Positions 11,201 to 44,112 of a stretch of 64,000 nucleotides of DNA are shown here, one piece after another. The notes below the pieces were generated by a model that worked only from the letters and a program-made list of their open reading frames with translations, made no database searches and was not told the origin of the DNA. Source of the DNA: Bacteroidota bacterium (lineage in GTDB: Bacteria; Bacteroidota; Ignavibacteria; UBA10030; UBA8401); assembly GCA_021796275.1 (NCBI GenBank), contig JAJYOI010000003.1, positions 1,532 through 65,531 on the forward strand, given 5' to 3'. Positions within the stretch are counted from its first letter, which is position 1. The number at the start of each line of letters is the position of its first letter. A program made the position numbers and the translations under genes.

Positions 11201-11766
11201 TCAAGGTCGGCGTTGGGAACATCCTGACGCAGGTAGCCGGGCCACACATATTGCCCTTTCGACGGATTGTACCAACTCGAGGGCCAGCTATCCGGCTTGC
11301 CGTCACGCGGACTAATATCAGGTGCACCGCTTGATGCCATCACAGGCGATGAAGGATCAGCATAATCGGGCAACGGTTCCCATCCGTAAATGACCGAGTT
11401 GTCGTTCTGATCCACATCTTTTGCGTACACATCATTCACAGCATCGGAAGAGATCGCGACAACCTTGCCGCTTGAATCAATAACTGACGCCGCAACAAGT
11501 GGGCAAAACTGATAGATGTCGCCTAAGCCGTGCCAAACCATATTATTGACGTGGCGCAGAAGTCCGAGCCCCGGTGCAATGCCGCCGTAATTATAAATAT
11601 TTCCGACAATTTGGTTTCCGTTCATCAGGAAGTATTTCCTGTCGGCAGCGCTCGCCTGCTTATTAAACCATGCCGGAATATCCGCTTTCGTCAATCGCTG
11701 CTGCTGCGCAGTGAGGATTGCTGTGCAGCTTATCATAATGAGAATAATTCGACCGTACACTTTCAT
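8221..11766 (-). CDS. Large secreted protein with Asp-rich Ca-binding repeats and a T9SS C-terminal domain; candidate PorU-like T9SS C-terminal signal peptidase
   Basis: 1181 aa, signal peptide. IDNDGDGMIDE / DDDHDW / DGVPDTHDPGEGDG repeats. C-terminal ~90 aa match the type-A T9SS sorting domain (…GVYIAHIDAPGVGQRIVKFALIK). The size and the upstream position relative to the PorV-like gene mirror porU-porV operons. The C25 catalytic motifs were not verified. Confidence 0.45.
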   Translation of the reverse strand: MKVYGRIILIMISCTAILTAQQQRLTKADIPAWFNKQASAADRKYFLMNGNQIVGNIYNYGGIAPGLGLLRHVNNMVWHGLGDIYQFCPLVAASVIDSSGKVVAISSDAVNDVYAKDVDQNDNSVIYGWEPLPDYADPSSPVMASSGAPDISPRDGKPDSWPSSWYNPSKGQYVWPGYLRQDVPNADLEVLWGMDDRDNSEFAYFPFYKDTVASDGRHLRGLGVKVEGRALQWSNALAQNTIFFVYTVQNYSTRDLDTVYFGMYGDVDVGGGYPINTAESQDDLGFFISPLDTVDRLTGKPVAVFSRSLVYFWDNDGVGNYGLRTHYDACKFLESPGNPNDGIDNDGDGMIDESQTNGIDDDHDWKATNDDVGIDGVPDTHDPGEGDGVPTAGIRLPDGTLDPLHPGEPNFELTDLDESDQIGLTAFRSWTWGADPVNNLSTDSLVWQHLEEGFYNTIPQVTDISFLYGSGKISLKKRDTDGSIKRFSIALLMGENKDDILLTAQTVQVIYNQNYQFIRPPDKPIVTAVAGDRKATLYWDSEAENSVDPIQGKDFEGYVIYRSTDPQFSDINQITDGKGTSLLAQPLQDSKGRDAKWDIATRPEPFADSGSAGAVYDNTIKKWYKDLNGNGKWDASVDDYWKGYAPKAYDGRGVSYYLGDNTGLVHSYVDSNNVINGQTYYYAVVSYDHGDSVQYPPSECTKRISIDPITSRMTFDVNTVAVIPGPRSSGYTPPGFASAEGADHIQGSATGRITLQILNDMAISGDAQYGITFADSLQTDTKKIAAVNYSVLRLDPVTSQVYLFDTNYVKIGRTNVSVDSFFVVSDAQSNQVFAMNTDYVLDPVRGLLRKTGSGAMKNKTGPFNVTYRFFGQPPSTLINNEEANPVFDGIKVFAQNQPLALDTINSTWVNDNNKTIDYHVGLPTIGTIKVAPFDVQIFFYSSDTLANGMYAYGDTLPNTINKPVITPFHIVNVTKDSIRANIKITARILESKPTVVKGAKDGRWDFGEPIIFVTPPPYGSGNNTMYQVTFSAKDSLNKKFGGEIFRIVTQQPFTSKDVYQFQTVAAKFDAAKASGTLDRIKVVPNPYVAVNDIEPTDRLPGTTRGSRRIYFEHLPPRATIRIFTLSGELVRTLEHDSGIDNGREYWDLLNRDNLGVAYGVYIAHIDAPGVGQRIVKFALIK

Positions 11767-11794: not shown

Positions 11795-14464
11795 TTAAAA
11801 AGTGATGGATGCGCCGACCTGTACTTCACGAGGCGGCGAATAATACGCAGGGTTATTGAAGTAATCGCTTGTTCCATGAATGCCGGGAACAACACCGACA
11901 TGCGCATCTACGTTTGCACCTTCACCGCGCGATGGCGCTAGAGTGTATGTTGCACGCCCTGTGTCGTCGTACACGAGCACTTCGTTGAGCGTATCAAAAA
12001 GATTGTAGACCTTCAAAAAAACAGTGTACGTCAAACCGGCAAATTGGAAATGTTTTTCCGCAACCAGATCAACTGTGGACTGCATCGGCTTCCTGGCGGA
12101 ATTGCGTTTGAGCACTACTTGGTTATCCGCGACAAACGGAGTGTACGGGAGACCGGCGCCGACTTTTCCGATAACACTGACGTTCCAATTTTGCGATTTA
12201 CCAAGCGTGAGCGTCGTGTTTAATGTGTGCGTCTGATCCCAATCAAGGAACACAACAACCTTTTCGCTTTCACGCCCGGATGATTGATCAATGAAGAATG
12301 CATCCGCGCTCACATCGTTGCCTTCGGCAACCTGAAATGTGTAATCAATCGTCAACGAAAGAAGATCGGAAGCAAGCCGCCGCTTCTCAAGTCTGAACGT
12401 GATGCCTTTAATATTTCCGTAATCTTGGTTGACATACATATTGAACGTCGTATCTCCGCTGATGCGGATTGTCTGCACGGCGAAAAGATCGCGCACATCT
12501 TTGTAAAAGCCGGTAACGTTCATGACAAGGTTATCGGTCAGTTGCTGCTGCAAGCCGAATTCGTACGTCACCGTCTTTTGCGGATCGAGGTTTGCATTGC
12601 CGAATGTTGTGGACGTTACATCCACACCGAATTTGAAGTTCGGATTTTCATACAACCGCCGAAGCTGCGGCATTTGGTAAAAATGCCCGTACGAAAAATG
12701 AATAATGCCGCGGTCGGTGATCGGGTACGAAATGCCGATGCGCGGACTTAACGTTTGCTTCGCCAGCGCGTCAACTTGTGCACCGCGCGGATAAAAAATA
12801 TTCGCCGGATACTTGGCATTCGCTTTAAAATAATCATATCGCAAACCGAGATTCAAAACGATATTTTGGTACTCCATCTTGTCCTGAAGATAGCCGGCGT
12901 ACTGCTTTGGAAATCGTGCGTAGCTGTTGATGCGTGAATCGTTTACCTGAGGATAAACGGGATGAAGATTAGTAACCAGATCGCGCAGCACAGTGCCGGA
13001 AAACTGCCGCATCTGCGGAAATACCGCCTCAACGCCGGCTTTCATTTCATTGCGTGCGGAAAGCTCCGATACAATATCGCCCTTCATCTGATACATCTCA
13101 GCAGTCTGCTCGAAACGCCCGTTAAGCGTTCCGCCTAAATAAAATCCGCCGCCCGACATGCCGGTCTGCAAATCTTCCGTCGGTGCATAATGAATGGAAT
13201 CCATATCCTTGTACCGGTATTGTTCATAATCGTACCGGCTGTACGACCCGCGGATTTTAATGTAGGTCTTCGTGTCGAACCAATCGGTGTATTCTATCGT
13301 ATGAAAAACATCATTCTCGTAATTGTTGTAGGTGCCATCCGGATTATATTTGAACGCATGATTGTAGCCGCGGTAACGATCCTGATTGAACACGAAATCA
13401 TAACTCAATTTTCGTGTTGAGCTCAAATTGAATGTCACACGATTGCTCGCGCTGATCGAATTGTCGGGATTCATCGGAACAAGTGCACCGTCTCCCGTCA
13501 TCGGCACAATCCAGTTTGTGTCGTTCGTGAAGTCGGGTCTATCCCACACTGAATGTTCGCGCACGCCGTAAAGCCAGCCGCGGTCAATTTCCGAACGCGC
13601 AGAAGCAAAGAAAGTCACCGATCCGTTCGTCAGCGGAATTGGTCCTCCAACCGATCCTTCGGTAATATAATTGCTCAGCGGATCGATCTTATCCACGTTC
13701 AAAAAAATGTTGTTGTGTGAACTGACTCTGTCTCCTGTGTAAAAAGTAATCTGGCCGTTGTACGTTTCCCCGCCTTCTTTCAAGCCTGTTTCCACCACGC
13801 CGCTCAACGCGTTGCCGTATTCAGCATTGAATGTTCCCTGCACGACCGATAATTCCTGAATTGCATTCGTTGCAATGGTGATGCTGTTCGTATTGGTGAA
13901 CGGATTATTGATGGAAACGCCGTTCACCGTGTAAGAAACCTCATCCGCTCTGCCGCCGCGGAAATGAAGCGCCCCGCCCGCATCGGCAATCACGCCGGCC
14001 TGAGTGGAAAGAATCGCCGTTACATTTTCGACAGGAAGCGCTTTGATCTGCGAGGCATCAACCGAAACCTGTGACGAAGTGAGATCGGTTCGCACCAGCG
14101 GACGCTCGGCGTGAACAACGACAGCTTCAAGATTTACCGCTTCGGAAGAAAGCTTCACATCAATGCGCGTAGTGAAGTCGGTGTTGACCTGCACGCCTTC
14201 AAAAATGTACTTCCGATAACCGACACTGGAAATATTCAGCGTATAGGTACCGGGACCGACGTTTGCAATGACATACATACCGCCAATATCAGACGCGGCG
14301 CCGGTTTTCGTTCCGGCAATGAGAACGGTTGCGCCCGCGATCGGTTCGCCGGTTTTTTCATCAGTGATTGTTCCGGAAATTTTTCCCGTTGTGCCGGAAT
14401 AAAGGGAAGAAACAAAAAGAAGGGTCAGCAGAATTATCGTACATCGGCAGTACCAATGAGCCAT
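11795..14464 (-). CDS. TonB-dependent outer-membrane receptor with N-terminal carboxypeptidase-regulatory-like domain
   Basis: 889 aa, signal peptide. CarbopepD_reg-like GKISGTITDEKTGEPIAGATV…, plug-like region, long beta-barrel. Terminal …VQVGASITF. Confidence 0.7.
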   Translation of the reverse strand: MAHWYCRCTIILLTLLFVSSLYSGTTGKISGTITDEKTGEPIAGATVLIAGTKTGAASDIGGMYVIANVGPGTYTLNISSVGYRKYIFEGVQVNTDFTTRIDVKLSSEAVNLEAVVVHAERPLVRTDLTSSQVSVDASQIKALPVENVTAILSTQAGVIADAGGALHFRGGRADEVSYTVNGVSINNPFTNTNSITIATNAIQELSVVQGTFNAEYGNALSGVVETGLKEGGETYNGQITFYTGDRVSSHNNIFLNVDKIDPLSNYITEGSVGGPIPLTNGSVTFFASARSEIDRGWLYGVREHSVWDRPDFTNDTNWIVPMTGDGALVPMNPDNSISASNRVTFNLSSTRKLSYDFVFNQDRYRGYNHAFKYNPDGTYNNYENDVFHTIEYTDWFDTKTYIKIRGSYSRYDYEQYRYKDMDSIHYAPTEDLQTGMSGGGFYLGGTLNGRFEQTAEMYQMKGDIVSELSARNEMKAGVEAVFPQMRQFSGTVLRDLVTNLHPVYPQVNDSRINSYARFPKQYAGYLQDKMEYQNIVLNLGLRYDYFKANAKYPANIFYPRGAQVDALAKQTLSPRIGISYPITDRGIIHFSYGHFYQMPQLRRLYENPNFKFGVDVTSTTFGNANLDPQKTVTYEFGLQQQLTDNLVMNVTGFYKDVRDLFAVQTIRISGDTTFNMYVNQDYGNIKGITFRLEKRRLASDLLSLTIDYTFQVAEGNDVSADAFFIDQSSGRESEKVVVFLDWDQTHTLNTTLTLGKSQNWNVSVIGKVGAGLPYTPFVADNQVVLKRNSARKPMQSTVDLVAEKHFQFAGLTYTVFLKVYNLFDTLNEVLVYDDTGRATYTLAPSRGEGANVDAHVGVVPGIHGTSDYFNNPAYYSPPREVQVGASITF

Positions 14465-31721: not shown

Positions 31722-31794
31722 GTGCTCTCGCGCAGACTCGAACTGCGATTAGAGGTTTAGGAAACCCCCGTTCTATCCACTTGAACTACGAGAG
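31722..31794 (-). tRNA. tRNA-Arg (anticodon CCT)
   Basis: Hand-folded. Acceptor GCTCTCG/CGAGAGC, D stem GTTC/GAAC, anticodon stem GGGGT/ACCTC with loop TTCCTAA (CCT), T arm CGCAG-TTCGAGT-CTGCG, discriminator A. No encoded CCA. Confidence 0.8.
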
Positions 31795-31931
31795 CTACAT
31801 GCTGGAGAAAGATAGTCAAATCTCTGTGGACTTTCAATAAATTTGGCGTTCATTTAAGCGTGCGAAGATAGACTTCGGAACGTCTGTCTTCAAAACAAGA
31901 GAAGAAAAATCTTCACAAGGTTTCCATAATC

Positions 31932-32560: not shown

Positions 32561-32612
32561 ATTTGGACATTAAAGGAAATTCATCTAAAAGTTTTGGACT
32601 TTAGAGGAATTC
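32561..32612 (+). promoter_or_regulatory. Tandem direct repeats (candidate operator) upstream of the HTH-EIIA regulator gene
   Basis: ATTTGGACATTAAAGGAAATTC (32561..32582) and TTTTGGACTTTAGAGGAATTC (32592..32612), about 31 bp centre to centre. Confidence 0.4.
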
Positions 32613-32644
32613 TATGTAACTTTTTGATCAAAAGAAAGCGCCGT

Positions 32645-33334
32645 ATGGAATTGAAGATTAAGGATATCGTCGACCTTTTACAAGTTTCCGAAAAGACTGT
32701 CTACAGGTGGATCAAAGATAAAAAAATACCCTGTTATCGAATTAATCATCAGTATCGTTTCAATCGCACAGAAATTAATGAATGGATACTGAGCAGCAAA
32801 ATCGAACTGTCTTCTTCTCTTTTAAATTTATCAAGCTCTGGAAGACAAGACGATCTATCACAGCTTATAGAAAAAGGTGGAATTGTCTCTAATATTCCCG
32901 GTGAAAATGTTCGGGAAGCATTGCGAAATGCAATTCAAAGAATTAACACGCCGCAAAACATTCCGAAAGAAGAAATTCTCTCGGCTTTGTTAAGCAGGGA
33001 AGAAATGATGCCGACGGCAATCGGCAAAGGAATAGCAATTCCTCACCCGCGCAATCCCATCATTACCGATTTAAAAAATGCGAGCGTTTCAATTTGTTGC
33101 TTGGAGAAACCGGTTGATTTCGGTTCTTTGGACAATCTTCCGGTTCACACTCTTTTCATTTTACTCACGGCAACTCCGAAAATGCATTTAGAAGTGCTTT
33201 CTAAAATTTCGTACCTCTGCCAAGATGACTCCTTCTTAAATCTGCTGAAGGAACATGCGCAAAAAGAAATTATTTTGGACTATGTTCGCAAGAGAGAATT
33301 AGAGTGGCACAAGAAAGAGACGTTGAATAAATGA
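32645..33334 (+). CDS. Fusion regulator: excisionase/MerR-type HTH DNA-binding domain + PTS EIIA type-2 (PtsN/EIIA-Ntr-like) domain
   Basis: N-terminus LKIKDIVDLLQVSEKTVYRWIKDKKIPCYRINHQYRFNRTEINEWI (HTH_17-like). C-terminal domain with GKGIAIPHPRNP (phospho-His motif of EIIA-Ntr) and PVHTLFILLTATP. Start taken at ATG 32645 (MELKIK). Stop overlaps the start of the next gene. Confidence 0.6.
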   Translation: MELKIKDIVDLLQVSEKTVYRWIKDKKIPCYRINHQYRFNRTEINEWILSSKIELSSSLLNLSSSGRQDDLSQLIEKGGIVSNIPGENVREALRNAIQRINTPQNIPKEEILSALLSREEMMPTAIGKGIAIPHPRNPIITDLKNASVSICCLEKPVDFGSLDNLPVHTLFILLTATPKMHLEVLSKISYLCQDDSFLNLLKEHAQKEIILDYVRKRELEWHKKETLNK

Positions 33335-35313
33335 TAAGCTTCTTTGCGGGTACCGCGTTGTTTTTCGTTGGAGGGTTAGCCGCCATTGTTGTAAAAGGAA
33401 AATTCAAGGCGATGATGTTTTTAATTTTCGCAGTCCTTGCTGAATTTTTTCTTCTCCCTTCGATCGTCCGGATTTTACTGTATGGCGGCCAACTTGAAAC
33501 GCAGCTCGCTTTCTCTGGTCCGATTGGAATTTCATTTATCCGATTAGATCCGTTGGCGGCGCTGTTTGCGCTGATCATTTCTCTCGGCTCATTGCTTGCC
33601 GCAGTGTATTCCATCGGTTACATGAAAATGTATTCGGACGATACGGCAGAACTTTCATCCTATTATTTCTTTTTAGGGATGATGGTTTCTTCAATGCTTC
33701 TTGTCGTCGTCGTACAAAATGCGTTGCTCTTCCTCATTGTCTGGGAATTGATGTCGCTTGCCTCGTTCTTTCTTGTAAGCTTTGAACACAAAAAAGAGGA
33801 CGTGAGAAAAGCCGGACTCTATTACCTCGTTGCCATGCAAATTGGAGCGGCATGTTTGCTTGCTGCGTTTGGTTGGTCGTCTGCAATTACCGGCTCACTC
33901 GATTTTAATTCTTTTAAAAGCGTTGCCGTCAATTCAGGCAGTAATTCAGTCTTTCTCTTTATTCTTTTCTTATTTGGATTCGGCACGAAAGCCGGTTTCG
34001 TTCCTTTACATACGTGGCTGCCGAAAGCACATCCAGCGGCTCCAAGTGGAGTTTCCGCGTTGATGTCCGGCGTTATGATCAAAACCGGCATTTATGGAAT
34101 TCTGAGAATTCTTTTGCTGTTCGGTGTTCCAGACTTACGACTCGCATACGGAATTTTTATCCTTTCAATAGTCACCGGAATTTATGGCGTCGCAAATGCC
34201 ATCGCGCAGCACGATCTGAAAAAATTACTTGCCTATCATAGTATAGAAAATATAGGTATCATCGGCATGGGAATCGGTGTTGGTATGCTTGGCTTGGCAT
34301 ACAACAATACGCTTGTTGCGGCACTGGGTTTTCTCGGAGCTTTGCTGCACACGTTTAATCATTTTACTTTTAAGAGCGTTTTGTTTTATGGCGCCGGAAT
34401 AGTGTACTCGCAAACTCATACAAGAGAAATTGAAAAGCTCGGCGGCCTCAATAAATATTTGCCGTTCACCTCCGTTCTTTTTTTGATTGCTTCACTTGCA
34501 ATCAGCGGCATGCCGCTGCTCAGCGGGTTCATTAGTGAGTTTGCAATTTTTCTTGGCATTGCGAGAAGCTTTTCTATCACTGCCCTCCCGATTAATATTG
34601 CTGCTTTATTAGGAATGTCCGGCTTAGCACTTATCGGAGCGATGGCTCTTTTGTGTTTCACCAAAGTCTATGGAATTTGTTTCCTCGGTTCACCACGATC
34701 AGAATTTCATTTTGTACCTTCAGAAAAAGAATCGTCGCTTCTTATCCCGATGATTATTTTGGATCTCTTCATTATTGCGATCGGTGTTCTTCCAATGCTT
34801 TCAGTTGTCGTGCTCGGCCATATCGTTGCGCAGTTTGTACCGAGTGTTTCAATCACCGCACTGCCGGAAATTATTTCACTGATGACGAAAGTATCCATCA
34901 CAATGGCTCTATTCATTTTCATAATTATTTTCTTCTTTGTCATAAGAACTGTTTTACTAAGGAAAAGAAGAGTGCAAGCCTTCAAAACGTGGAATTGCGG
35001 CTATCAGGGGGAAAGCAGCCGTCTTCAATACACGGCAAGTTCCTTCGCTCAACCATTCTTGCAATTGACTGCAGAATTAGTTCAGCAAAAAGTCCACATC
35101 CACAAAGAGCAAGTGCTCTTCCCTGCGCACGCGTCTTTTGAAAGTCATGCTCAGGATTTTTCAGAGCGATTGCTCATTCAGCCATCCATCCGCTTGCTGA
35201 ATAAATTCCTGAATAAATTCTCATGGATTCAAAGCGGAAGAATGCAACAATACATCATCTACGGATTGATCTTTCTCGTTGCGCTTCTTATCTGGATTTG
35301 GAGCGGCAAATGA
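33331..35313 (+). CDS. HyfB/HycC/NuoL-like antiporter-type membrane subunit of a group-4-hydrogenase-like complex
   Basis: 660 aa, about 16 TM helices. WLPKAHPAAPSGVSALMSGVMIKTG proton-pumping subunit motif and a C-terminal extension as in HyfB. Confidence 0.8.
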   Translation: MISFFAGTALFFVGGLAAIVVKGKFKAMMFLIFAVLAEFFLLPSIVRILLYGGQLETQLAFSGPIGISFIRLDPLAALFALIISLGSLLAAVYSIGYMKMYSDDTAELSSYYFFLGMMVSSMLLVVVVQNALLFLIVWELMSLASFFLVSFEHKKEDVRKAGLYYLVAMQIGAACLLAAFGWSSAITGSLDFNSFKSVAVNSGSNSVFLFILFLFGFGTKAGFVPLHTWLPKAHPAAPSGVSALMSGVMIKTGIYGILRILLLFGVPDLRLAYGIFILSIVTGIYGVANAIAQHDLKKLLAYHSIENIGIIGMGIGVGMLGLAYNNTLVAALGFLGALLHTFNHFTFKSVLFYGAGIVYSQTHTREIEKLGGLNKYLPFTSVLFLIASLAISGMPLLSGFISEFAIFLGIARSFSITALPINIAALLGMSGLALIGAMALLCFTKVYGICFLGSPRSEFHFVPSEKESSLLIPMIILDLFIIAIGVLPMLSVVVLGHIVAQFVPSVSITALPEIISLMTKVSITMALFIFIIIFFFVIRTVLLRKRRVQAFKTWNCGYQGESSRLQYTASSFAQPFLQLTAELVQQKVHIHKEQVLFPAHASFESHAQDFSERLLIQPSIRLLNKFLNKFSWIQSGRMQQYIIYGLIFLVALLIWIWSGK

Positions 35314-36230
35314 TGATCAAGGCATTTGTCTTTGTGGCGGCGGCGCTTTCACCGTTTTTTTTCATCGGCATCGTTAATAAAACCAAGGCTCTTTGGGCAG
35401 GCAGAAAAGGCGCGTCGGTTTTTCAGCCGTACTACGATTTTTCTAAGCTGCTTTACAAAGGAGAAGTAATTAGTAAGACGACTTCTTTTGTTTTCAAAAT
35501 AGCTCCTTCAATAAATATTGCAGCAGTACTCTTTGCAATGTTATTTATTCCAATTCCTTTTATCGGATCAATCATAAGCTTTCCCGGTGACTTTATTGTA
35601 TTCACCTATACGCTTGCATTGGCGAAATTTATGCTCGTCCTTGCCGCTTTAGACACAGGGAGCAGTTTTGAAGGAATGGGAGCGAGCAGAGAAGTGACGT
35701 TTTCAGCGCTGGTCGAGATGGCATTTTTTATTATTCTCGGCACGCTCGCATTATTGAGCAGCCAGATTTCATTCCAAGCACTGTTTACAATGCTGACCGT
35801 TAGCGCGGGTTATTCACTGTTAGTAAAAATTCTTTTAGTCGCTTCCTTCTTTATTATGCTTTTAGCAGAAGGCAGCCGCGTTCCGGTTGACGATCCAAAC
35901 ACGCACCTCGAGCTTACAATGATCCATGAAGTGATGATCCTCGATTACTCCGGTCCCGATTTGGCTTTTATGGTGTATGCCGCAGGGATGAAGATGCTGC
36001 TCATCGCGCTGTTGATTGCAGACTTATGTATTCCGCCAAATTTACCAGTGATGGCAGCACTTTCGCTCTTCATCGGAGTTCTGATTCTTATTTATATATC
36101 CGTCGGAGCGGTTGAATCGTTAATCGCACGCTCACGAATGTCGCATGTTCCGCAATTTATTTTTCTTATGACGGCTCTTTCTTTGACAGCGTTCGCCGTA
36201 GTAACATTCTTTCTGCGCGGAGGAATGTGA
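35310..36230 (+). CDS. HycD/HyfC/NuoH-like membrane subunit
   Basis: Start at MMIKAF (ATGA overlap with the upstream stop). KALWAGRKGASVFQPYYDFSKLLYKGEV matches the NuoH/HycD N-terminal signature. Confidence 0.75.
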   Translation: MMIKAFVFVAAALSPFFFIGIVNKTKALWAGRKGASVFQPYYDFSKLLYKGEVISKTTSFVFKIAPSINIAAVLFAMLFIPIPFIGSIISFPGDFIVFTYTLALAKFMLVLAALDTGSSFEGMGASREVTFSALVEMAFFIILGTLALLSSQISFQALFTMLTVSAGYSLLVKILLVASFFIMLLAEGSRVPVDDPNTHLELTMIHEVMILDYSGPDLAFMVYAAGMKMLLIALLIADLCIPPNLPVMAALSLFIGVLILIYISVGAVESLIARSRMSHVPQFIFLMTALSLTAFAVVTFFLRGGM

Positions 36231-36865
36231 TGGCTGATATTTTGATAATTCTTCTCGGCACAAGTATGCTGTATGTTTTCGCCGTTAGCCGGATTGAAGC
36301 ATATGTGAAAACCCTCGCCGTGCAGGGATTCCTTCTTTTCCTCCTTGTCATCGTCGGCATGAAAGAAATCAGTTGGTTCAACATTGCATTTCTCGGCATG
36401 GAAACATTAGTGATCAAAGCTATCCTTATTCCGTATTTCCTCTTGACCGTCATTCGCAAAAATGAAATTGGACGGGAAGTAGAGCCGTATATTACGCAAT
36501 TCTATTCTATCTTCATTGCAAGCGGAATTATTGTTTTCGGATTTGTTGCTGCATTTTGGGCGGCTAAAACAGGCACAGGCATCAAGCCACTCTACTTCGG
36601 CGTTTCTATTATGTTTATTGTCTCCAGTCTCTTTTTGATCGTTAACCGCAAAACGATCATTACACATATTCTCTGTTATATGATGCTGGAGAATGGAATA
36701 TTTCTGCTCTCGCTTTCTGTTGCAAACGAATTACCGCTGTTGGTCAACCTCGGCGTCTTACTCGATCTGTTTGTAGGCGTATATCTCTTTGTCATCTTCT
36801 TTAATAAAATTCAAGAAATGTACGACGGCAGCCATATTGATGATCTTACAGAATTGAAGGATTGA
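36227..36865 (+). CDS. HyfE-like small membrane subunit
   Basis: 212 aa polytopic, in the position and size of HyfE. ATGA overlap. Confidence 0.5.
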   Translation: MMADILIILLGTSMLYVFAVSRIEAYVKTLAVQGFLLFLLVIVGMKEISWFNIAFLGMETLVIKAILIPYFLLTVIRKNEIGREVEPYITQFYSIFIASGIIVFGFVAAFWAAKTGTGIKPLYFGVSIMFIVSSLFLIVNRKTIITHILCYMMLENGIFLLSLSVANELPLLVNLGVLLDLFVGVYLFVIFFNKIQEMYDGSHIDDLTELKD

Positions 36866-38298
36866 TGATGATTGGTGTTGTGCTTCTTCTGCCGATAGCG
36901 TTAGGATTATTGAGCGTGCTGACTAAAAATAAAATTGTCAATCGCATAGCGCTGATTGGCTCTGCGGTTGTGTATGTTGTTGTTGCGGCAGCGCGGTGGA
37001 TGAATGTGGAGTGGGACTGGCTGCCCGCCTGGCTTTTAACCTACTTTCAATTTGATACCATCGGACTTTACTTTTTTTCCGTCATGGCGATAGTGTACGG
37101 CAGCGTTGCAGCGTACAGCATATTCTATTTTAAAGAGCACAACTTATCGGGAAAACAAGAATCCATTTATGTCATTGAGATTTTATTCTTCATCGTTGCA
37201 ATGACCGGAGTTATTCTCTCAACTCATCTTGCTTTACTGTGGGTGTTTGTTGAAGCGACGACATTAATAAGCGCACTGTTGATTTATTTCGAAAAGAAAA
37301 AATCGTCACTCGAAGCTGCATGGAAGTATGTCTTTATTTGCTCCATCGGAATCGCGCTGGCGTTTGTCGGCATTATTATTCTCTCCATCGGCAGCCGGCA
37401 TATAGATTCGCTGTTCTTCAAAGATTTATATGCGCGCGCTTCAGAAATAAATCCGTTTTGGCTCAAAGCATCGTTTGCATTTATTTTTGTCGGATTGGGA
37501 ACAAAAATCGGCGTTGCCCCGATCCATGCATGGCTGCCCGACGCGCATTCCGAAGCGCCTTCCCCGGTATCAGCTCTGCTTTCCGGAGCGCTGCTGAATT
37601 CTGCTTTTCTTGGATTGCTTCGCGTCCAGGGAATATTTATTCATGCCGGATTAGACGGCTTCTCAAACTTTCTTTTTCTCATCACCGGTTTTCTTTCGTT
37701 GATGGTGAGCGCCGTCTTCATGCTGAGACTGAAGAACTATAAAAGAATGCTCGCCTATTCTTCGATAGAAAATATGGGCTTTCTTTTCATTGGTGTCTCG
37801 CTTGGCAAATATGGTTTTTTTGCCGTTCTTCTGCATACGCTGTCTCATTCTCTTTCGAAAGCATCACTGTTCATGACGTCGGGTAATATTTTGCATCTCT
37901 ATAAAACTAAAAAAATTGATGAAGTAAACGGATTGCTCAAAACAGATCCGCGCACAGGCTGGCTGTGGATCACTGCTACGCTCGCCATTATCGGCTTCCC
38001 TCCGTTTCCTGCTTTCATCAGTAAATTTCTCATTATACAGGCATTTTGGTTAAACGGCATGTATTGGCTTGCCGCTCCGCTGTTCTTGTTTTTGCTGGTG
38101 ATCACTTTCGGCATGGGCGGTGCTGTATTTAAAATGTCTTTTGGTGAAGCGCAAGAATCAACTACAATAAATCAGAAAATAATGATGCACGCCTATGCAC
38201 CGCAATTCGTTTTGCTTTTGATTCTCATTGTTCTTGGAACTAATATGCCCAAACAAGTGCTTAATTTTTTGAACGGCACTGCCGGTTTTTTTCAATAA
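36862..38298 (+). CDS. HyfF/NuoN/NuoM-like antiporter-type membrane subunit
   Basis: 478 aa. WLPDAHSEAPSPVSALLSGALLNSAFLGLLRV motif. Confidence 0.75.
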   Translation: MMMIGVVLLLPIALGLLSVLTKNKIVNRIALIGSAVVYVVVAAARWMNVEWDWLPAWLLTYFQFDTIGLYFFSVMAIVYGSVAAYSIFYFKEHNLSGKQESIYVIEILFFIVAMTGVILSTHLALLWVFVEATTLISALLIYFEKKKSSLEAAWKYVFICSIGIALAFVGIIILSIGSRHIDSLFFKDLYARASEINPFWLKASFAFIFVGLGTKIGVAPIHAWLPDAHSEAPSPVSALLSGALLNSAFLGLLRVQGIFIHAGLDGFSNFLFLITGFLSLMVSAVFMLRLKNYKRMLAYSSIENMGFLFIGVSLGKYGFFAVLLHTLSHSLSKASLFMTSGNILHLYKTKKIDEVNGLLKTDPRTGWLWITATLAIIGFPPFPAFISKFLIIQAFWLNGMYWLAAPLFLFLLVITFGMGGAVFKMSFGEAQESTTINQKIMMHAYAPQFVLLLILIVLGTNMPKQVLNFLNGTAGFFQ

Positions 38299-38307
38299 GC
38301 GGAGTAA

Positions 38308-39798
38308 TTGTTGAACTGGATTGAGATAAAAAATTTACAAGCAATACCGTTAGACGAAATACCGCGTCTCGCTCTCGACGATTTGCGAAATCAGACGGCA
38401 GAGAAAATTAAAAGCGGAAAAAGGCTGGTTCAATTCTTTGGCGATACGGAATCTGATGCAATAACTATTTACGCAATTGTTGCTGACGATAACAATTCAA
38501 AGCTCTGTATCTCTTCTTCGAAAACTAAACCTGAGCAGACTTATTGCTCCATGACGCCCGAAATCCCTTCGGCTTCGTTATTCGAACGCGAACTATACGA
38601 GCTATGCAGAATCACACCCGAAGGGCACCCTTGGCTCAAACCTGTTCGGAAAGGAGTTGCCGGAATTGACCGAAGCGAAATTCCGTATAGATTTTTCAGC
38701 ATGAGCGGCGAGGAAGTTCACGAGGTCGGCGTTGGTCCTATTCATGCTGGAATAATCGAGCCAGGACATTTCAGGTTTTCTTGCCACGGCGAAAAGATCT
38801 TTCATCTTGAAATTGAACTCGGCTTTCAGCATCGCGGAGTTGAAGCACTCTTCATCAAGAACAACAATCGCCCTGCCTATCTCGAAAAACTATCGGAATC
38901 AATCGCCGGTGATACTGTCATCGGACATTGCGGAACATTCGTCCGTGCAATGGAATCCGCGGCGAACATTTTGGTTTCGCGCTCTGCAAAAACGATACGG
39001 ACTATTGCACTTGAACTGGAGCGGATTGCAATTCATTTGGGTGATTTGTCCGCGCTGTCCGGAGATGTTGCGTACCTGACAGGTAATTCCGTTTTCGGTG
39101 CGCTTCGCACAAAAGTGATCAACACAACAATGGCAATGTGCGGAAACCGGTTTGGCAGAGGATTACTCACAATGGGAGGAGTCAACTACGGCATTTCTCC
39201 AAAACTAAAAGAGAAAATTGTATCAACGCTCGATGAACTTGATGATGCTGTGCTTCTCGCAGGAGAAGTTCTGTTTTCGTCGGCATCGACGCTGGAGCGA
39301 TTTGAAAAAACGGGAATTGTCGAAAAAGAAACGACAATTGAAATTGGCATGGTGGGCCCTGCCGCGCGGGCAAGCGGAGTTGCCATTGATGTCCGCGCCG
39401 ACCATCCATTCGGTGGTTATGAATATTTCCCCGTCCATAAGTTGACATTAGACAGCGGCGACGTCTTTGCACGAGCCTATATTCGCTTTGTTGAAATTCA
39501 GCAATCGCTTAAAATTCTTCGTGAGCAATTGAACAATCTTTCCGAAAGTGAGTTGAAGAAAACTTTAGCCGCGCTTCAGCCAAATCGTTTCGTCGTTTCT
39601 CTCACTGAAGGATGGCGCGGCGAGATCGCTCACGTGCTTCGCACAGATCGTGACGGAAAGATCAAATGTCTGAAAATCAAAGACCCGTCGTTTAACAATT
39701 GGTTAGCTGTAGCGCTTGCTGTTCGCGAGGAAGGAATTTCCGACTTCCCTTTGTGCAACAAGAGTTTTAATCTTTCCTATTGCGGCTTTGATTTGTAA
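38308..39798 (+). CDS. NuoCD/HycE-like large subunit lacking the [NiFe]-site cysteines (Ehr-type)
   Basis: 496 aa. GPIHAGIIEPGHFRF…HLEIELGFQHRGVE conserved core. L1 position reads ESIAGDTVIGH instead of RxCGxCxxxH. C-terminal motif reads DPSFNNW instead of DPCxxC. Confidence 0.75.
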   Translation: MLNWIEIKNLQAIPLDEIPRLALDDLRNQTAEKIKSGKRLVQFFGDTESDAITIYAIVADDNNSKLCISSSKTKPEQTYCSMTPEIPSASLFERELYELCRITPEGHPWLKPVRKGVAGIDRSEIPYRFFSMSGEEVHEVGVGPIHAGIIEPGHFRFSCHGEKIFHLEIELGFQHRGVEALFIKNNNRPAYLEKLSESIAGDTVIGHCGTFVRAMESAANILVSRSAKTIRTIALELERIAIHLGDLSALSGDVAYLTGNSVFGALRTKVINTTMAMCGNRFGRGLLTMGGVNYGISPKLKEKIVSTLDELDDAVLLAGEVLFSSASTLERFEKTGIVEKETTIEIGMVGPAARASGVAIDVRADHPFGGYEYFPVHKLTLDSGDVFARAYIRFVEIQQSLKILREQLNNLSESELKKTLAALQPNRFVVSLTEGWRGEIAHVLRTDRDGKIKCLKIKDPSFNNWLAVALAVREEGISDFPLCNKSFNLSYCGFDL

Positions 39799-39815
39799 AA
39801 CTATTTCGGTGAAGA

Positions 39816-40574
39816 ATGCTTGACCTGATAAAACTGAGAAAGCGTCACGGCTTTCAGGCAATTGCCGATGTTCGGAATGCGGCGGTGATGGAAACGCATC
39901 GCGGCTTCCCAATCATTGATGAAACAAAATATACCGATGATTGGCAAAAAGTTGCCGATGTATGCCCGACGAAAGCAATCACGACACATCCGGCTGCAAT
40001 CGATCTTGGAAAATGCATCTTTTGCGGCGAGTGTGAACGCGCATCAAACGGAGCGATCCGTTTCAGCAATGATCATAAAATTGCAGCATCGAAGAAAGAA
40101 CATCTCGTTATTGCTTCGGGAACAACGTATGCGGAATATCGTGCATCGGCAATAGAGGCACGTGAAAAAATACATAGCATGTTCGGCCGCTCTCTGAAGC
40201 TCAGGCAGGTTTCCGCCGGCGGATGCAACGGCTGCGAAATGGAATTGGCGGCATGCGGAAATGTAAATTTTGACATGGGGCGCTTCGGCATTGACTTCGT
40301 CGCTTCGCCGCGCCATGCCGATGGCATTGTCATCACAGGGCCTATCACAAAAAACATGGCGCTGGCTTTATCGGATGCGTACAAAAGCATCAGCGAGCCA
40401 AAAATTGTTATTGCCGTCGGCGCGTGTACGATTAGCGGCGGCGTGTTTGCAGATTCGGGGGAAACCAATCGTGAATTCATTAACACGGTAAAAATTGACT
40501 TGTTTATTCCCGGCTGCCCGCCTCATCCTCTCACTATCATTAATGCAATTTTAGATTTCATCGGAAAAAAGTAA
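39816..40574 (+). CDS. NuoB/HycG/HyfI-like small subunit with N-terminal ferredoxin-like (single 4Fe-4S) extension
   Basis: GGCNGCEME, GACTISGG and GCPP cluster ligands are present. The N-terminal ~90 aa carry CPTKAI…GKCIFCGECE. Confidence 0.75.
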   Translation: MLDLIKLRKRHGFQAIADVRNAAVMETHRGFPIIDETKYTDDWQKVADVCPTKAITTHPAAIDLGKCIFCGECERASNGAIRFSNDHKIAASKKEHLVIASGTTYAEYRASAIEAREKIHSMFGRSLKLRQVSAGGCNGCEMELAACGNVNFDMGRFGIDFVASPRHADGIVITGPITKNMALALSDAYKSISEPKIVIAVGACTISGGVFADSGETNREFINTVKIDLFIPGCPPHPLTIINAILDFIGKK

Positions 40575-40805: not shown

Positions 40806-42500
40806 ATGATGATTACCGTCTTCGCAGATATTCCGCAGCATACAGAGGCATCTCTTCACGCGGCAACGTACACTGTGCGAGGCAAGCTTCTTCGGACAAC
40901 TTCGGGACTCGAACCATACGCAGGACCGTGGAATGAATTGACCGCCGCGCATTTGCTCAGACGGACAATGTACGGTCCGAAACGAAGTGAAATCCTCTCC
41001 GCTGCATCAAGTTCGCTCGATACCGTACTCACTCAACTCTTCGCTCCGCCGCCAACTCATCCTATTCCTCCTGACCCGAATGTCCCGGGGCGTGACTGGA
41101 CTGTCGGTCCCTATTCCGATATCGTTCAGATCAACTATCAGTATGATTTCGCAATCAAAAAGTGGTGGGTCGGATTGATGCTCACGCAGGGAATTTCTGT
41201 TGTTGAAAAAATGACGCTCCTCCTGCACAACCATTTTGCATCGCAGGCAAGCATTGTAGGCGATGCGCGCTATATGTATAAACAAAATACTTTGTTCCGC
41301 CAATTTGCGCTCGGCAATCTCAAAGAGCTGACCAAAGCGGTGACAATTGACCCCGCAATGCTTGTGTATCTCAACGGATTCCTGAATAAAATTCCATCGC
41401 CGGATGAAAACTACGCCCGTGAACTGCAGGAGTTATTTACCATCGGAAAGGGACCGGAGATTGCCGATGGAAATTATACGAACTACACTGAACAGGATGT
41501 GAAAGCGGCTGCCCGCGTGTTGACCGGCTGGACAGTGCATCATACGACAAACCCGCCGGCTTCAGTATTCGTTCAGAAAAACCACGACAGCGGAAGCAAG
41601 CAATTTTCGTCGGCGTATCAAAATACCGTTATCAAGCCGACACTGAATCCCGACGGGACAATGAACGGCAGCAAAGAAATCAGCGACCTTATTGAAATGA
41701 TTTTCCTCCAGCCTGCAACTGCCCGGTGCTTTTGCAGAAAGCTCTATCGCTGGTTTGTCTATTACGATATTGATGATACGGTCGAACAAAATGTTATTGT
41801 GCCGCTTGCCGATATCATGATGAAGAATAATTTTGAGGTCAAGCCTGTGCTTGACACCCTTTTCCGCAGCGCTCATTTTTTTGATCCGAACAACATCGGC
41901 TGTGTCATTAAAAATCCTGTGGAATTTGCAGTCGGCACAGCGCGCCGGCTCAATCTTCCGCTGCCCGGCTCCGCCGATCCGGAATTTGTGAAGGTAACGG
42001 ACGCGCTGAGGGATACAGCGTGGAGTTTGCAAATGGATCTTCTTGAGCCGCCGAATGTGGCAGGCTGGCCTGCATACCATCAAGCGCCCGATTATCATGA
42101 AATATGGATCAGTACTACTGCGCTTCCGACACGCGGAAAATTCACCGACACCGTTCTGAACGGAATTCATCCGCAGGGAAGCACTACCACCTACAAAATT
42201 GATCCGGTTGCGTACGCCGCAGCCATGAGCAATCCGTCCGACCCGTTCAAGCTTGTTGACGAGATAACGTCGGACCTTTTGCCGCCAATCGAAGGAGGCG
42301 CGGCAATCACGCCGGAACAAAAAAATTATTTACTGTACAATGTTATGGGCTTGGTACAAAACGATGAATATGAATGGACCGCGAACTGGAACAATGCGCA
42401 GAAAAACCCGCCGGATAGTACGGCTTTGACGACTGTGACGAAGACGCTCAAGTCGCTTCTCCGATTCGTGATGCGAATGGCAGAATTTCAATTGACATAG
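40806..42500 (+). CDS. DUF1800-family protein
   Basis: 564 aa. Composition and length typical of DUF1800. Immediately followed by its usual DUF1501 partner. Confidence 0.6.
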   Translation: MMITVFADIPQHTEASLHAATYTVRGKLLRTTSGLEPYAGPWNELTAAHLLRRTMYGPKRSEILSAASSSLDTVLTQLFAPPPTHPIPPDPNVPGRDWTVGPYSDIVQINYQYDFAIKKWWVGLMLTQGISVVEKMTLLLHNHFASQASIVGDARYMYKQNTLFRQFALGNLKELTKAVTIDPAMLVYLNGFLNKIPSPDENYARELQELFTIGKGPEIADGNYTNYTEQDVKAAARVLTGWTVHHTTNPPASVFVQKNHDSGSKQFSSAYQNTVIKPTLNPDGTMNGSKEISDLIEMIFLQPATARCFCRKLYRWFVYYDIDDTVEQNVIVPLADIMMKNNFEVKPVLDTLFRSAHFFDPNNIGCVIKNPVEFAVGTARRLNLPLPGSADPEFVKVTDALRDTAWSLQMDLLEPPNVAGWPAYHQAPDYHEIWISTTALPTRGKFTDTVLNGIHPQGSTTTYKIDPVAYAAAMSNPSDPFKLVDEITSDLLPPIEGGAAITPEQKNYLLYNVMGLVQNDEYEWTANWNNAQKNPPDSTALTTVTKTLKSLLRFVMRMAEFQLT

Positions 42501-42507
42501 AGTAAAA

Positions 42508-44112
42508 ATGAACAGAAGAGAATTTATCCGACGGGCAATTCCTGTAACGGCGCTGCCATTCGTGCTGAACGGATTTCCGCTTCGCGCGTACGGCCGCTCT
42601 CCTTTGCTCGACGCAATAACCAAAGCCGCGGTCACGACTGACCGCGTGCTCGTGCTTGTTCAACTCGGCGGAGGCAACGACGGCATTAATACCGTCATCG
42701 CGCGCGATCAATATCACGCATATATGAATGCGCGTCAAAATATTGCTCTTCCTGAATTATCAATTCTTCCTCTGACATCCGAGACGGGTTTGCATCCCGC
42801 CATGACCGGCATGCGTTCGCTCTACGAGGATGGAAAGCTCGCCATTGTGCAGGGCGTAACATATCCGAACCCCGATCTCTCCCACTTCCGCGCAACAGAT
42901 ATTTGGCTGACGGCAGCGGACTACAACGAAACTCTTTCGGACGGCTGGCTCGGCAGATATTTGCAGCAGGAATTTCCCGGCTATCCTGTCGGTTACCCGA
43001 ACGAGGTAACTCCCGATCCGCTTGCAATTCAAATCGGCGCCGATGTCTCGCTCGCGCTGAAAAGCTCTTCGGGTCCAATGGCGATCTCGCTCTACGATCC
43101 GGATTCATTCTATCAATTGATACAAAACGGAAACAACGGCGGTGTAGCGCAATCTCCGAAAACACCGGCGGGACATGAGCTGTCGTTCATTCAGGAAATA
43201 GCAACACAGTCGCAGGACTATGCCGCTCAAGTGAAAACTGCGGCAGATAAAATCAGCAGTGCAACCCGCTCGGCAATGTATCCCGGTCCCGGAAAAAATT
43301 ATCTTGCCGATCAATTGAAGATTGTTGCTACGCTTATCGCCGGCGGATTGAAAACTCGCTTGTACATCGTGAACCTGTACGGCTTCGACACGCATTCTTC
43401 ACAAGTGGACGGAGGCGATTCGAAAAACGGTGAACATGCGGCGCTGCTGGAAAAACTTTCAACGGCAATTTCTGCATTTCAGGACGATCTGAATACTTTA
43501 GGAATCGGCGATCGCGTACTCGGAATGACATTTTCAGAATTCGGCAGGCGCGTTTATTCCAATTCAAGCCTCGGAACCGATCACGGCACCGCCGCGCCGA
43601 TGTTTCTGTTTGGCAACGGTGTGAAGCCCGGCATCATCGGTGCGAACCCCGATCTTACCGATCTTGTGGATGGAAATTTGAAAATGCAATTCGACTTTCG
43701 CTCTGTCTATACGTCTGTGCTTCAGCAGTGGTTTGCTACAGGAACAGCGGAGTTGAATGCAACACTGCTACAGACGTTCCCTGCCATTCCGGTCGTTCGC
43801 AAATCGTACTACATTGATGAAAACGGCAACCGCTTGTATTCTTCCACGTGCCGTTTATACAACAACTATCCCAATCCTTTCAACCCTTCAACGACTATCG
43901 CGTACGATCTCCCCGATGACGGCACCGTGCTGTTGGAAGTGTTTGACATTACGGGAAGAAAAATAGCAACGCTTGTTAATGGTTTCCAGCCGGCGGGAAG
44001 TTACAAAGTGACATTCACAGCATCGAACAGACTTGCCAGCGGCGTGTATATTTGTCAATTGCGGTGGGGCGAGACACTTGCGATTCGGAATAAAATGCTG
44101 CTGCTGAAATAA
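42508..44112 (+). CDS. DUF1501-family protein with Tat signal peptide and T9SS C-terminal sorting domain
   Basis: MNRREFIRRAIPVTALPF (RRxFI Tat motif). Sulfatase-like DUF1501 core. C-terminal NYPNPFNPSTTIAYDLPDDGTVLLEVFDITGRKIATLV…LLLK type-A T9SS CTD. Confidence 0.7.
   Translation: MNRREFIRRAIPVTALPFVLNGFPLRAYGRSPLLDAITKAAVTTDRVLVLVQLGGGNDGINTVIARDQYHAYMNARQNIALPELSILPLTSETGLHPAMTGMRSLYEDGKLAIVQGVTYPNPDLSHFRATDIWLTAADYNETLSDGWLGRYLQQEFPGYPVGYPNEVTPDPLAIQIGADVSLALKSSSGPMAISLYDPDSFYQLIQNGNNGGVAQSPKTPAGHELSFIQEIATQSQDYAAQVKTAADKISSATRSAMYPGPGKNYLADQLKIVATLIAGGLKTRLYIVNLYGFDTHSSQVDGGDSKNGEHAALLEKLSTAISAFQDDLNTLGIGDRVLGMTFSEFGRRVYSNSSLGTDHGTAAPMFLFGNGVKPGIIGANPDLTDLVDGNLKMQFDFRSVYTSVLQQWFATGTAELNATLLQTFPAIPVVRKSYYIDENGNRLYSSTCRLYNNYPNPFNPSTTIAYDLPDDGTVLLEVFDITGRKIATLVNGFQPAGSYKVTFTASNRLASGVYICQLRWGETLAIRNKMLLLK

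Follow-up and report, generated by a model that had tools for sequence, protein, structure and literature searches.

A seven-gene Ehr-type cassette headed by a PtsN-like regulator gene in an Ignavibacteria-like genome

Ehr complexes (short for energy-converting, or Ech, hydrogenase-related) were first named, as later papers tell with reference to Coppi 2005 and Marreiros et al. 2013, for the genes GSU0739-0745 of Geobacter sulfurreducens, and they are described as relatives of the group-4 hydrogenases with EhrA, a HyfE-like EhrC, EhrL and EhrS subunits and without Ni-Fe ligands (PMC7894505, PMC3569383, PMC6349859, PMC10284858). The family is already known since 2005, has been repeatedly surveyed in studies of metagenome-assembled genomes (MAGs), and is often cited as an evolutionary link from group-4 hydrogenases to complex I. 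Together with the Hyq complexes of rhizobia, it ranks among the most widespread relatives of complex I lacking an assigned reaction. Among the relatives studied by experiment, the nearest is the 'endo-hydrogenase' of rhizobia (hyqRBCEFGI), which in Azorhizobium caulinodans and other diazotrophic alpha-proteobacteria consists of seven tightly packed genes, a regulator followed by B-C-E-F-G-I, and is kept under NifA/sigma-54 control in connection with N2 fixation (PMC2650096, PMC3357923). A further member of the Ehr family is described here, found in a stretch of 64,000 nucleotides (contig JAJYOI010000003.1 of assembly GCA_021796275.1, positions 1,532 to 65,531) that we will call the window. A regulator gene and the genes ehrA-B-C-D-L-S make up in it a seven-gene cassette, which almost certainly encodes an Ehr-type complex of the Hyf/Hyq lineage in an Ignavibacteria-like genome of the FCB (Fibrobacteres-Chlorobi-Bacteroidetes) group. 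A first-pass annotation, made from the letters of the window alone, had taken the locus for an Ehr complex instead of a true hydrogenase, and that reading is supported by our sequence analyses, in which every testable feature of the family was found. As in the published description of Ehr, the set comprises six subunits: EhrA (NuoL/HyfB-like), EhrB (NuoH-like), EhrC (HyfE-like), EhrD (antiporter-like), EhrL (NuoCD-like) and EhrS (NuoB-like). What this subtype adds to the described complexes is a gene for an HTH_17 and PtsN-like regulator within the operon and an EhrS in which NuoI and NuoB parts are fused. The elements of the locus, numbered on the window, are the following.

32562-32588 and 32593-32619, plus strand: two direct repeats of 27 nt, set 31 nt apart and lying 26-83 nt 5' of the regulator gene (candidate operator/promoter region)
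32645-33334, plus strand: regulator gene, HTH_17 domain and PtsN-like EIIA domain of the phosphotransferase system (PTS), 229 aa (PF12728 5.7e-15; PF00359 5.6e-27)
33331-35313, plus strand: ehrA (first ehr gene), HyfB/NuoL-like antiporter-type subunit, 660 aa (NF005086 5.7e-161 over the full length; PF00361 9.7e-56)
35310-36230, plus strand: ehrB (second), HycD/HyfC/NuoH-like subunit, 306 aa (PF00146 5.6e-30)
36230-36865, plus strand: ehrC (third), HyfE-like subunit with a NuoK-like C-terminal half, 211 aa (full-length match to NF008556, 6.5e-19; PF00420 covers residues 123-210)
36865-38298, plus strand: ehrD (fourth), HyfF/NuoN-like antiporter-type subunit, 477 aa (NF005044 2.9e-93; PF00361 1.5e-53)
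38311-39798, plus strand: ehrL (fifth), fused NuoC and NuoD/HycE-like large subunit, 495 aa (PF00329 and PF00346)
39816-40574, plus strand: ehrS (sixth), small subunit, 252 aa (PF01058 5.2e-28; N-terminal Fer4-type hits)

The six co-directional genes initially proposed at 33331-40574, and their order, were borne out by Pfam and NCBIfam searches, with E-values spanning about 1e-19 to 1e-161, and by an independent gene caller that returned, on a public contig identical to this one, the same models of 660, 306, 211, 477, 495 and 252 aa. The start of ehrB is the ATG at 35310 and not the beginning of the open reading frame (ORF) at 35223, and ehrL starts with a TTG at 38311. The extent of the operon held only for these six genes, as the unit begins one gene upstream with the overlooked regulator, whose stop codon overlaps the start of ehrA as ATGA. 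An overlap of this type had also been claimed for every junction, which is wrong: three of the five internal junctions overlap, ehrA/ehrB as ATGA and both ehrB/ehrC and ehrC/ehrD by 1 or 4 nt according to the start codon chosen, and gaps of 9-12 nt and 17 nt separate ehrD from ehrL and ehrL from ehrS. In comparison with the relative L089, whose proteins are 93-98% identical, all seven genes show dN/dS values of 0.05-0.11 (0.065 for the regulator). These values, together with the many close relatives and the kept gene order, indicate functional genes that are not decaying.

Alignments of EhrL to MbhL of Pyrococcus furiosus and to HycE and HyfG of Escherichia coli revealed that the four cysteine positions of the Ni-Fe site are all replaced (A199, T202, S489 and G492). 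The sequence SIAGDTVIGH (38899-38928) stands in the place of the RxCGxCxxxH motif of those proteins, and NLSYCGFDL followed by the stop codon (39769-39795) in that of DPCxxCxDR. The protein ends there, with 0 residues past the L2 position where HycE and HyfG add a tail of 32 aa, so that a maturation protease would have no substrate to cut. The loss of the Ni-Fe ligands noticed at first sight was thus borne out on re-translation and alignment, with no CxxC pair left, and we conclude with high confidence that the encoded complex should be unable to carry a canonical [NiFe] site. A hydrogenase-type β1-β2 loop, GVGPIHAGIIEPGHF, is found at 38728-38778, and its hydrogenase-type Glu (E150) is kept within GPIHAGIIEPGHF. 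Among representatives of clusters at 50% identity, the motifs x[IV][AS]GD[ST]xx[AG]H and [ND]LSY[CSA]GxDL-stop and the loop GPIHAGIIEPGHF are conserved down to 33% identity, which argues against random decay as the origin of the replacements, and such a conserved family signature excludes sequencing errors at the four Cys codons. The commonest pattern at these positions in the family is 'ATSG', and CxxC pairs were absent from all close relatives and from 110 cluster representatives.

The same picture came from a crude neighbour-joining tree of 121 sequences and 361 columns, in which EhrL falls inside the clade of the 110 Cys-less representatives. A handful of tail-less proteins with the four cysteines are sister to this clade, HycE and HyfG of E. 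coli branch further out, and NuoCD forms the outgroup. The large subunit therefore clusters with Cys-less proteins, apart from bona fide group 4 and from NuoD, as an Ehr assignment had implied. Strict monophyly of all the sequences without four cysteines received a bootstrap of 16/100, since a few intermediates such as P0244 fall among the four-Cys proteins. Sequence matches of EhrL in the PDB were MbhL (1.7e-39), HycE (1e-38), Nqo4 (3.4e-26) and MbsL (6.6e-18), and its AlphaFold2 model (predicted local distance difference test score 86.7) found HycE as the best structure match (7z0s_E, E 4.4e-30, TM-score 0.84). The only low-confidence parts of the model are the β1-β2 loop and the last five residues, that is, the former active-site elements.

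At first glance, the locus may be mistaken for a genuine [NiFe] group-4 hydrogenase (hydrogenase-4, or formate hydrogenlyase-2) or for a fragment of a canonical nuo operon. Its gene order resembles hyfB-C-E-F-G-I, the best NCBIfam models of three membrane subunits are Hyf models, and relatives carry public annotations such as 'Ni,Fe-hydrogenase III large subunit' or 'NADH-quinone oxidoreductase subunit C', labels that mislead metabolic reconstructions from MAGs. Both identities are nevertheless hardly tenable and were rejected on the motifs, the missing tail, the gene content and the neighbour-joining tree. In this line, the NCBIfam scores of the ehr products all lie below the curated equivalog cut-offs. 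Moreover, Pfam scans of about 50 ORFs over the 64-kb window detected no nuo (nuoA, E, F, G, I, J or K), hyp, formate dehydrogenase or maturation-protease gene, which agrees with the first-pass annotation on the lack of formate dehydrogenase, hyp and endopeptidase genes and speaks against a nuo remnant; the cassette is self-contained in many phyla. Comparison with the E. coli hydrogenase-4 operon (hyfABCDEFGHIJR-focB) and with hydrogenase-3 (formate hydrogenlyase-1, 7Z0S) shows a shared B-C-E-F-G-(H)-I order, and the HyfB, HyfE and HyfF models are the best for EhrA, EhrC and EhrD, but hyfA, hyfD, hyfJ, hyfR, focB and a free-standing hyfH are all missing from the locus, and the large subunit, which also lacks the Ni-Fe ligands and the processing tail, has only about 28% identity. 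The link of group 4a to formate dehydrogenase H, which relies on HyfA/HycB and on a two-cluster HyfH/HycF, has no counterpart in the window.

Relatives of EhrL occur in at least 588 species genomes in a scan of one genome per species, and the clusters at 64% identity or above number more than 120. Searches of 50%-identity clusters gave 5,500 matches at E <= 1e-3, 655 of them at E <= 1e-30; bona fide hydrogenases and homologues of NuoD are part of these counts. The closest named homologues come from MAGs of Ignavibacteriaceae/Ignavibacteriales (72-74% identity); the genome and omics papers on Ignavibacterium and Melioribacter make no mention of an Ehr cluster. The order A-B-C-D-L-S is kept, wherever the contig covers it, in 80 fetched loci from Ignavibacteria, Bacteroidota, Zhuqueibacterota, Spirochaetota, Acidobacteria, Desulfobacterales, Clostridia, Lentisphaeria, Verrucomicrobia and Melainabacteria. 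Rosettibacter firmus (GCA_036860695.1), one Latescibacterota MAG and one Bacteroidetes MAG have the same seven genes in the same order, and all the genes outside differ, which points to a self-contained cassette. Other arrangements exist. The Melainabacteria/gut subtype lacks the HTH-EIIA gene, and in 9 Melainabacteria-type loci a divergent formate/nitrite transporter gene (PF01226, 1.1e-75) is found 5' of ehrA; among the Melainabacteria/Gastranaerophilales-type loci L035-L084, this transporter lies for instance at L055:3873-4745 (minus strand), and a phosphate-porin-like gene is often near. Two Acidobacteria-type loci (L090 and L091) encode a short, NuoB-only small subunit by the first gene of the cluster, an archaeal locus (L092) has a separate gene for a 112-aa two-cluster ferredoxin and a Usp gene, and the locus of the Rhizobium plasmid pTA1_4 (L093) has also a NuoB-only small subunit. 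On plasmid 3 of Variovorax sp. PBL-E5 (L094), there is an Ehr cluster with a fused small subunit, an EhrL of 41% identity and no HTH-EIIA gene, and a second, separate hyf-like cluster follows about 3 kb downstream.

In the small subunit EhrS, what is left of a NuoI/HyfH protein (residues ~1-105, alignable to the initial 110 residues of HyfH/HycF/NuoI) is fused to a NuoB/HycG/HyfI domain. The absence of hyfA, hyfD and a full, separate hyfH announced by the first-pass annotation is therefore correct, but about 100 residues of HyfH had gone unnoticed at the N-terminus of EhrS. In two-cluster ferredoxins, each cluster is held by three Cys of one motif and the CP Cys of the other. In EhrS, only the final CP (C50) is left of motif 1 (CxxCxxCxxxCP), and motif 2 keeps its CxxCxxC (C67, C70 and C73) without the fourth Cys. 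C50 and C67/C70/C73 thus amount to exactly one complete ferredoxin-type [4Fe-4S] ligand set, and the four ligands of the other, distal cluster are all lost. The retained cluster corresponds to N6b of NuoI, which adjoins N2 in the Thermus thermophilus structure. In the second domain, the N2-type ligands C137, C140, C204 and C234 align with those of HyfI, HycG and NuoB, following the CxxCE...C...CP pattern of the E. coli proteins. A survey of 77 full-length homologues of the fused type found the proximal ferredoxin-type set complete in 76, the N2 ligands complete in 73, and the distal cluster kept in 35, among them Rosettibacter, Latescibacterota and many Spirochaetes. Sequences such as GGDNSCE, GTDA and GNPV replace the N2 motifs in small-subunit genes of the L047, L052 and L072 lineages, and replacements occur also in L012. 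Neither a NuoI-NuoB fusion with one kept cluster nor repeated trimming of Fe-S cofactors across the Ehr family was found described in the accessible literature.

The trimmed EhrS bears on the proposal that Ehr works as a formate-linked module, taking electrons from an unlinked formate dehydrogenase, as set out for Margulisbacteria and Saganbacteria (PMC6349859). Proteomics of G. sulfurreducens showed a higher abundance of every Ehr subunit detected when the cells were grown on formate (PMC7894505), and the transporter gene of the Melainabacteria-type loci would fit a role in formate metabolism. For the complex of the window, this role appears quite unlikely. The distal cluster that would take the electrons of the partner is precisely the one lost in its EhrS, HyfA/HycB, which wire FdhF to hydrogenase-3 and -4, are absent from the locus, and no formate dehydrogenase, NuoEF-like or formate/nitrite transporter gene lies nearby in the window or in the whole regulator-bearing subtype, whose flanks are unrelated.

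The membrane arm keeps the residues expected for ion translocation. In EhrA, these are E139 in transmembrane helix (TM) 5, K220 in TM7, K251 with H340/H344/K348 in TM8 and E403 in TM12, and in EhrD they are E130 (TM5), K214 (TM7), H324/H328/K332 (TM8) and K387 (TM12). EhrB aligns with HyfC/HycD/NuoH, with an altered TM5-6 loop, and the NuoK-like half of EhrC aligns with its E. coli counterpart. With complex I and the ferredoxin-dependent NDH-1 complexes, the locus shares homologous NuoB, C, D, H, K-like and L/M/N-like modules, the N2- and N6b-equivalent ligands and the Glu/Lys channel residues, and EhrL ends where NuoD does. It differs from them in the lack of NuoA, NuoE/F/G and separate NuoI/J, in having only two antiporter-like subunits (ehrA and ehrD are the only PF00361 genes of the window), and in an EhrL that is closer in sequence to the hydrogenases. 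The membrane-bound hydrogenase MBH and its relative MBS (Mbx) of P. furiosus (6CFW, 6U8Y) have likewise a group-4-derived peripheral arm set on an antiporter-type membrane arm, and MBS already offers an example of such a relative having given up H2 production. MbhL, however, has the CxxC motifs absent from EhrL, and the membrane arm of the window is of the Hyf type and not of the multi-subunit Mrp type. For the same reason, and because MbsL is a much weaker match to EhrL than MbhL and HycE, an MBS/Mbx-type complex was rejected.

The regulator joins an N-terminal HTH_17 DNA-binding domain (a helix-turn-helix, HTH) to an EIIA domain with the phospho-acceptor His134 in a GIAIPH motif (33023-33055). 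The C-terminal 150 residues match best E. coli PtsN (EIIA-Ntr, 1a6j), both by sequence (5e-12) and by predicted fold, and 3urr, 2a0j and 4gqx are further fold matches. The phospho-His of GIAIPH is shared with PtsN, from which the protein of the window differs by its HTH_17 domain and by heading a membrane-complex operon instead of lying in an rpoN operon. The fold search also returned the cytoplasmic regulatory domains of the SLC4 anion exchangers (band 3/AE2), which have an EIIA-like fold, so this fold serves as well as a regulatory domain on ion transporters. Across 53 sequences drawn from several phyla, both His134 and the REE...GxGIAIPH motif show a conservation of at least 95%, and one protein (P0271) is 100% identical to the regulator and has the same start. 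In 34 non-redundant loci, with about ten phylum-level taxon labels, the gene sits directly 5' of ehrA and nowhere else, and it is the sole flanking gene that is widely shared. No EI or HPr gene was detected by the Pfam scans of the window. Small HTH genes head other Ehr clades too, of the ArsR type in Acidobacteria-type loci and XRE-like (HyqR) in Rhizobium, a dedicated regulator thus being a recurring design in which the sensor is swapped. We found no report that ties a PTS EIIA protein to Ehr/Hyf-type operons in the literature searched, nor a description, in the accessible literature, of an HTH_17 and PtsN-like regulator with a candidate operator for an Ehr subtype.

The direct repeats upstream of the regulator gene read TTTGGAC(A/T)TTA(A/G)AGGAA..., that is, TTTGGACnTTAnAGGAA..., and are a candidate operator through which the HTH-EIIA protein might regulate its own gene. 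Their candidacy derives only from positional conservation across relatives: GGACA-N5-GGACA occurs at -87/-77 in L003, L013, L015 and L016 and at -90/-80 in L089, followed by a third GGACT at -47 in the former four and at -49 in the latter. Of 36 upstream regions, 7 contain a tandem GGAC pair, for which the background frequency is 0.0038 per 250 nt. Counts within the window have no part in the argument, as GGACW-N5-GGACW was found there 10 times for 6.7 expected, which is not significant. Scans of the window for sigma-70 promoters and intrinsic terminators gave counts near or below the shuffle expectation, or inflated by the T-rich genes of membrane proteins, and the host probably uses Bacteroidota-type promoters. 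The repeats may overlap a -33 TTTG element of that type.

Our best explanation of the locus as a whole, to which we give a probability of about 0.5, brings these parts together; its mechanism, put forward tentatively and with somewhat less than even confidence, would be that of a redox module coupled to an ion-translocating arm under PtsN-like control. In the cytoplasmic EhrL-EhrS module, two [4Fe-4S] clusters would serve as a short wire, one N6b-like at the surface and one of the N2 type. A soluble low-potential carrier, either a ferredoxin or a flavodoxin, would dock on the NuoI remnant and exchange electrons with this wire. A soluble donor is suggested by the lack of a partner dehydrogenase in the cassette and by flanks that are unrelated between genomes, and as the cassette is self-contained, both donor and acceptor must be diffusible. 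The site for the acceptor may be the former Ni-Fe pocket, now remodelled, where EhrL, EhrS and EhrB meet. Menaquinone is the default candidate in the Ignavibacteria lineage, in which Ignavibacterium album produces menaquinone-7 and possesses no fewer than nine ferredoxins (PMC3362086). Redox turnover would be coupled to the translocation of H+ or Na+ through EhrB, EhrC, EhrA and EhrD, and the reaction might run in either direction, as set by physiology. Expression would be set by the HTH_17-EIIA protein, switched by phosphorylation of His134 and probably acting at the upstream GGAC-containing direct repeats.

Several observations weigh against such an electron-driven pump. In the survey of EhrS, 41 of the 77 homologues have lost the distal cluster, including the window's own clade and many Melainabacteria, and a NuoI domain is entirely missing from the Hyq and Acidobacteria-type clades. 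Moreover, 3-4 lineages have even the N2 ligands replaced (L047, L052 and L072, with one change in L012); L052 and L072 keep all six genes intact and full-length and L047, L052 and L072 keep the EhrL signature, so electron transfer may be dispensable for the core function. The acceptor is also problematic. In the phmmer alignment of EhrL to Nqo4 of T. thermophilus (2fug_4), a Thr and an Ile are found at the positions of Tyr87 and His38, the ligands of the quinone head group in complex I. Furthermore, some Ehr-bearing lineages such as the Riflemargulisbacteria are reportedly devoid of quinone biosynthesis (PMC6349859), and quinone is therefore not a universal acceptor; for Gastranaerophilales, our literature search returned nothing usable on quinone status.

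The stepwise shedding of cofactors, with the Ni-Fe ligands gone in every member surveyed, then the distal cluster in more than half and N2 in a few, would be readily understood if Ehr were a redox-sensing or even non-redox cation/proton transporter, that is, an Mrp-like antiporter in which the hydrogenase-derived cap is a structural or regulatory lid, the Fe-S clusters are sensors and a PtsN-like protein exerts control. Of what was kept, nothing is as canonical as the ion-channel residues, no donor or acceptor enzyme is encoded in the cassette, and PtsN is known to control K+ transport in E. coli. We regard this reading as possible but doubtful. The ligands of N2 and of the proximal cluster are strictly kept in the window and in about 95% of its relatives, the pocket motifs of EhrL (GPIHAGIIEPGHF, GD[ST] and LSYxGxDL) are near-invariant down to 33% identity, which is more than a passive lid seems to need, and the known Mrp antiporters function without such a cap.

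A different explanation comes from the Hyq complexes. Their architecture is that of the window, down to a first regulator gene that overlaps the HyfB-like gene by 4 nt in L093. HyqG is Cys-less and has the GD[ST] and ...NKSFN.SY.G.DL-stop signature of EhrL, and HyqI keeps the N2 ligands, although with ~31% identity between HyqG and EhrL the likeness stays at the family level. HyqR, in contrast, is in Rhizobium a 104-aa XRE-like HTH protein without counterpart to the HTH_17-EIIA arrangement of the window, and HyqI, with 177 aa, lacks the ferredoxin-type domain of the 252-aa EhrS. Despite its missing cysteines, Hyq has been reported to recycle and evolve H2 in vivo: A. caulinodans deleted for hyqRBCEFGI showed an H2 evolution about 10-15-fold higher when the cultures were fixing N2, and a lower H2 output under microaerobic conditions (PMC3357923, PMC2650096). 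An unconventional, Hyq-like hydrogenase could accordingly be imagined, one that oxidises or evolves H2 at a non-canonical site of EhrL, with electrons passing through N2 to or from quinone. Rhizobium HyqG shares with EhrL the stretches ..SGDSTVAY.. and ..CNKSFNCSYSGHDL-stop, besides the regulator and BCEFGI layout, and EhrL still has the β1-β2 loop Glu E150. Yet we consider such an enzyme unlikely in the window, where none of the four metal-ligating Cys, no maturation tail and no hyp or protease gene is left, and where the resemblance to HyqG is so limited. The evidence from Hyq consists of whole-operon deletions in vivo, for which the authors state that there is no cell-free assay and call a Ni-Fe site 'uncertain, if not unlikely', and the phenotypes could be indirect, through an altered electron supply to nitrogenase. 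Moreover, cultured Ignavibacteria have been described with [FeFe] hydrogenases for their H2 metabolism (PMC3362086, PMC3534657).

The window sharpens the question of Ehr function without solving it, and the regulator, the fusion and the trimming are incremental but useful handles. The electron wire appears as a part that can shrink to one or two clusters and that was trimmed repeatedly, and the PtsN-like HTH regulator with its candidate operator offers a handle on when the complex is used. As the same seven-gene cassette is present in the cultured R. firmus, genetics, proteomics and biochemistry would be feasible. A wider and more speculative view, to which we attach only a small chance, is that the pocket of EhrL, in its remodelled form, is not dead but works as a new site, either active or sensing, and that Ehr/Hyq forms a distinct class of ion-translocating complexes with a subtype tied to a PTS-Ntr-type phosphorelay. 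The invariant pocket motifs GPIHAGIIEPGHF, GD[S/T]xx[A/G]H, KIKDPSF and LSYxGxDL-stop are indeed kept in Ignavibacteria, in rhizobial Hyq and in ANME archaea. If this were true, the complex could be a Ni-independent enzyme that handles H2, or a pump or antiporter gated through one or two Fe-S clusters, and in the FCB/Spirochaete/Desulfobacterota subtype the HTH-EIIA protein would link carbon and nitrogen status to membrane energisation.

The surroundings of the cassette are housekeeping or unrelated genes. Upstream lie genes for DnaE, an aldehyde dehydrogenase, ProS, a tRNA-Arg and an AHSA1-like protein, the tRNA-Arg (anticodon CCT, 31722-31795, minus strand) being situated between the ProS and AHSA1-like genes and representing the sole Rfam/tRNA match of the window. 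Downstream, a DUF1800 and DUF1501 pair occupies 40806-44112 of the plus strand; it is syntenic in the closest relative, L089, and not in other genomes, for which reason it was not counted as part of the cassette. The product of its second gene carries a C-terminal sorting domain of the type IX secretion system, and the sorting domains of this system in the window, like the closest named homologues, speak for an Ignavibacteria-like origin within the FCB group. Farther away, an ORF of 1181 aa without Pfam match (8221-11766, minus strand) adjoins a PorV-like gene (7168-8190, minus strand) and a TonB-dependent receptor gene (11795-14464).

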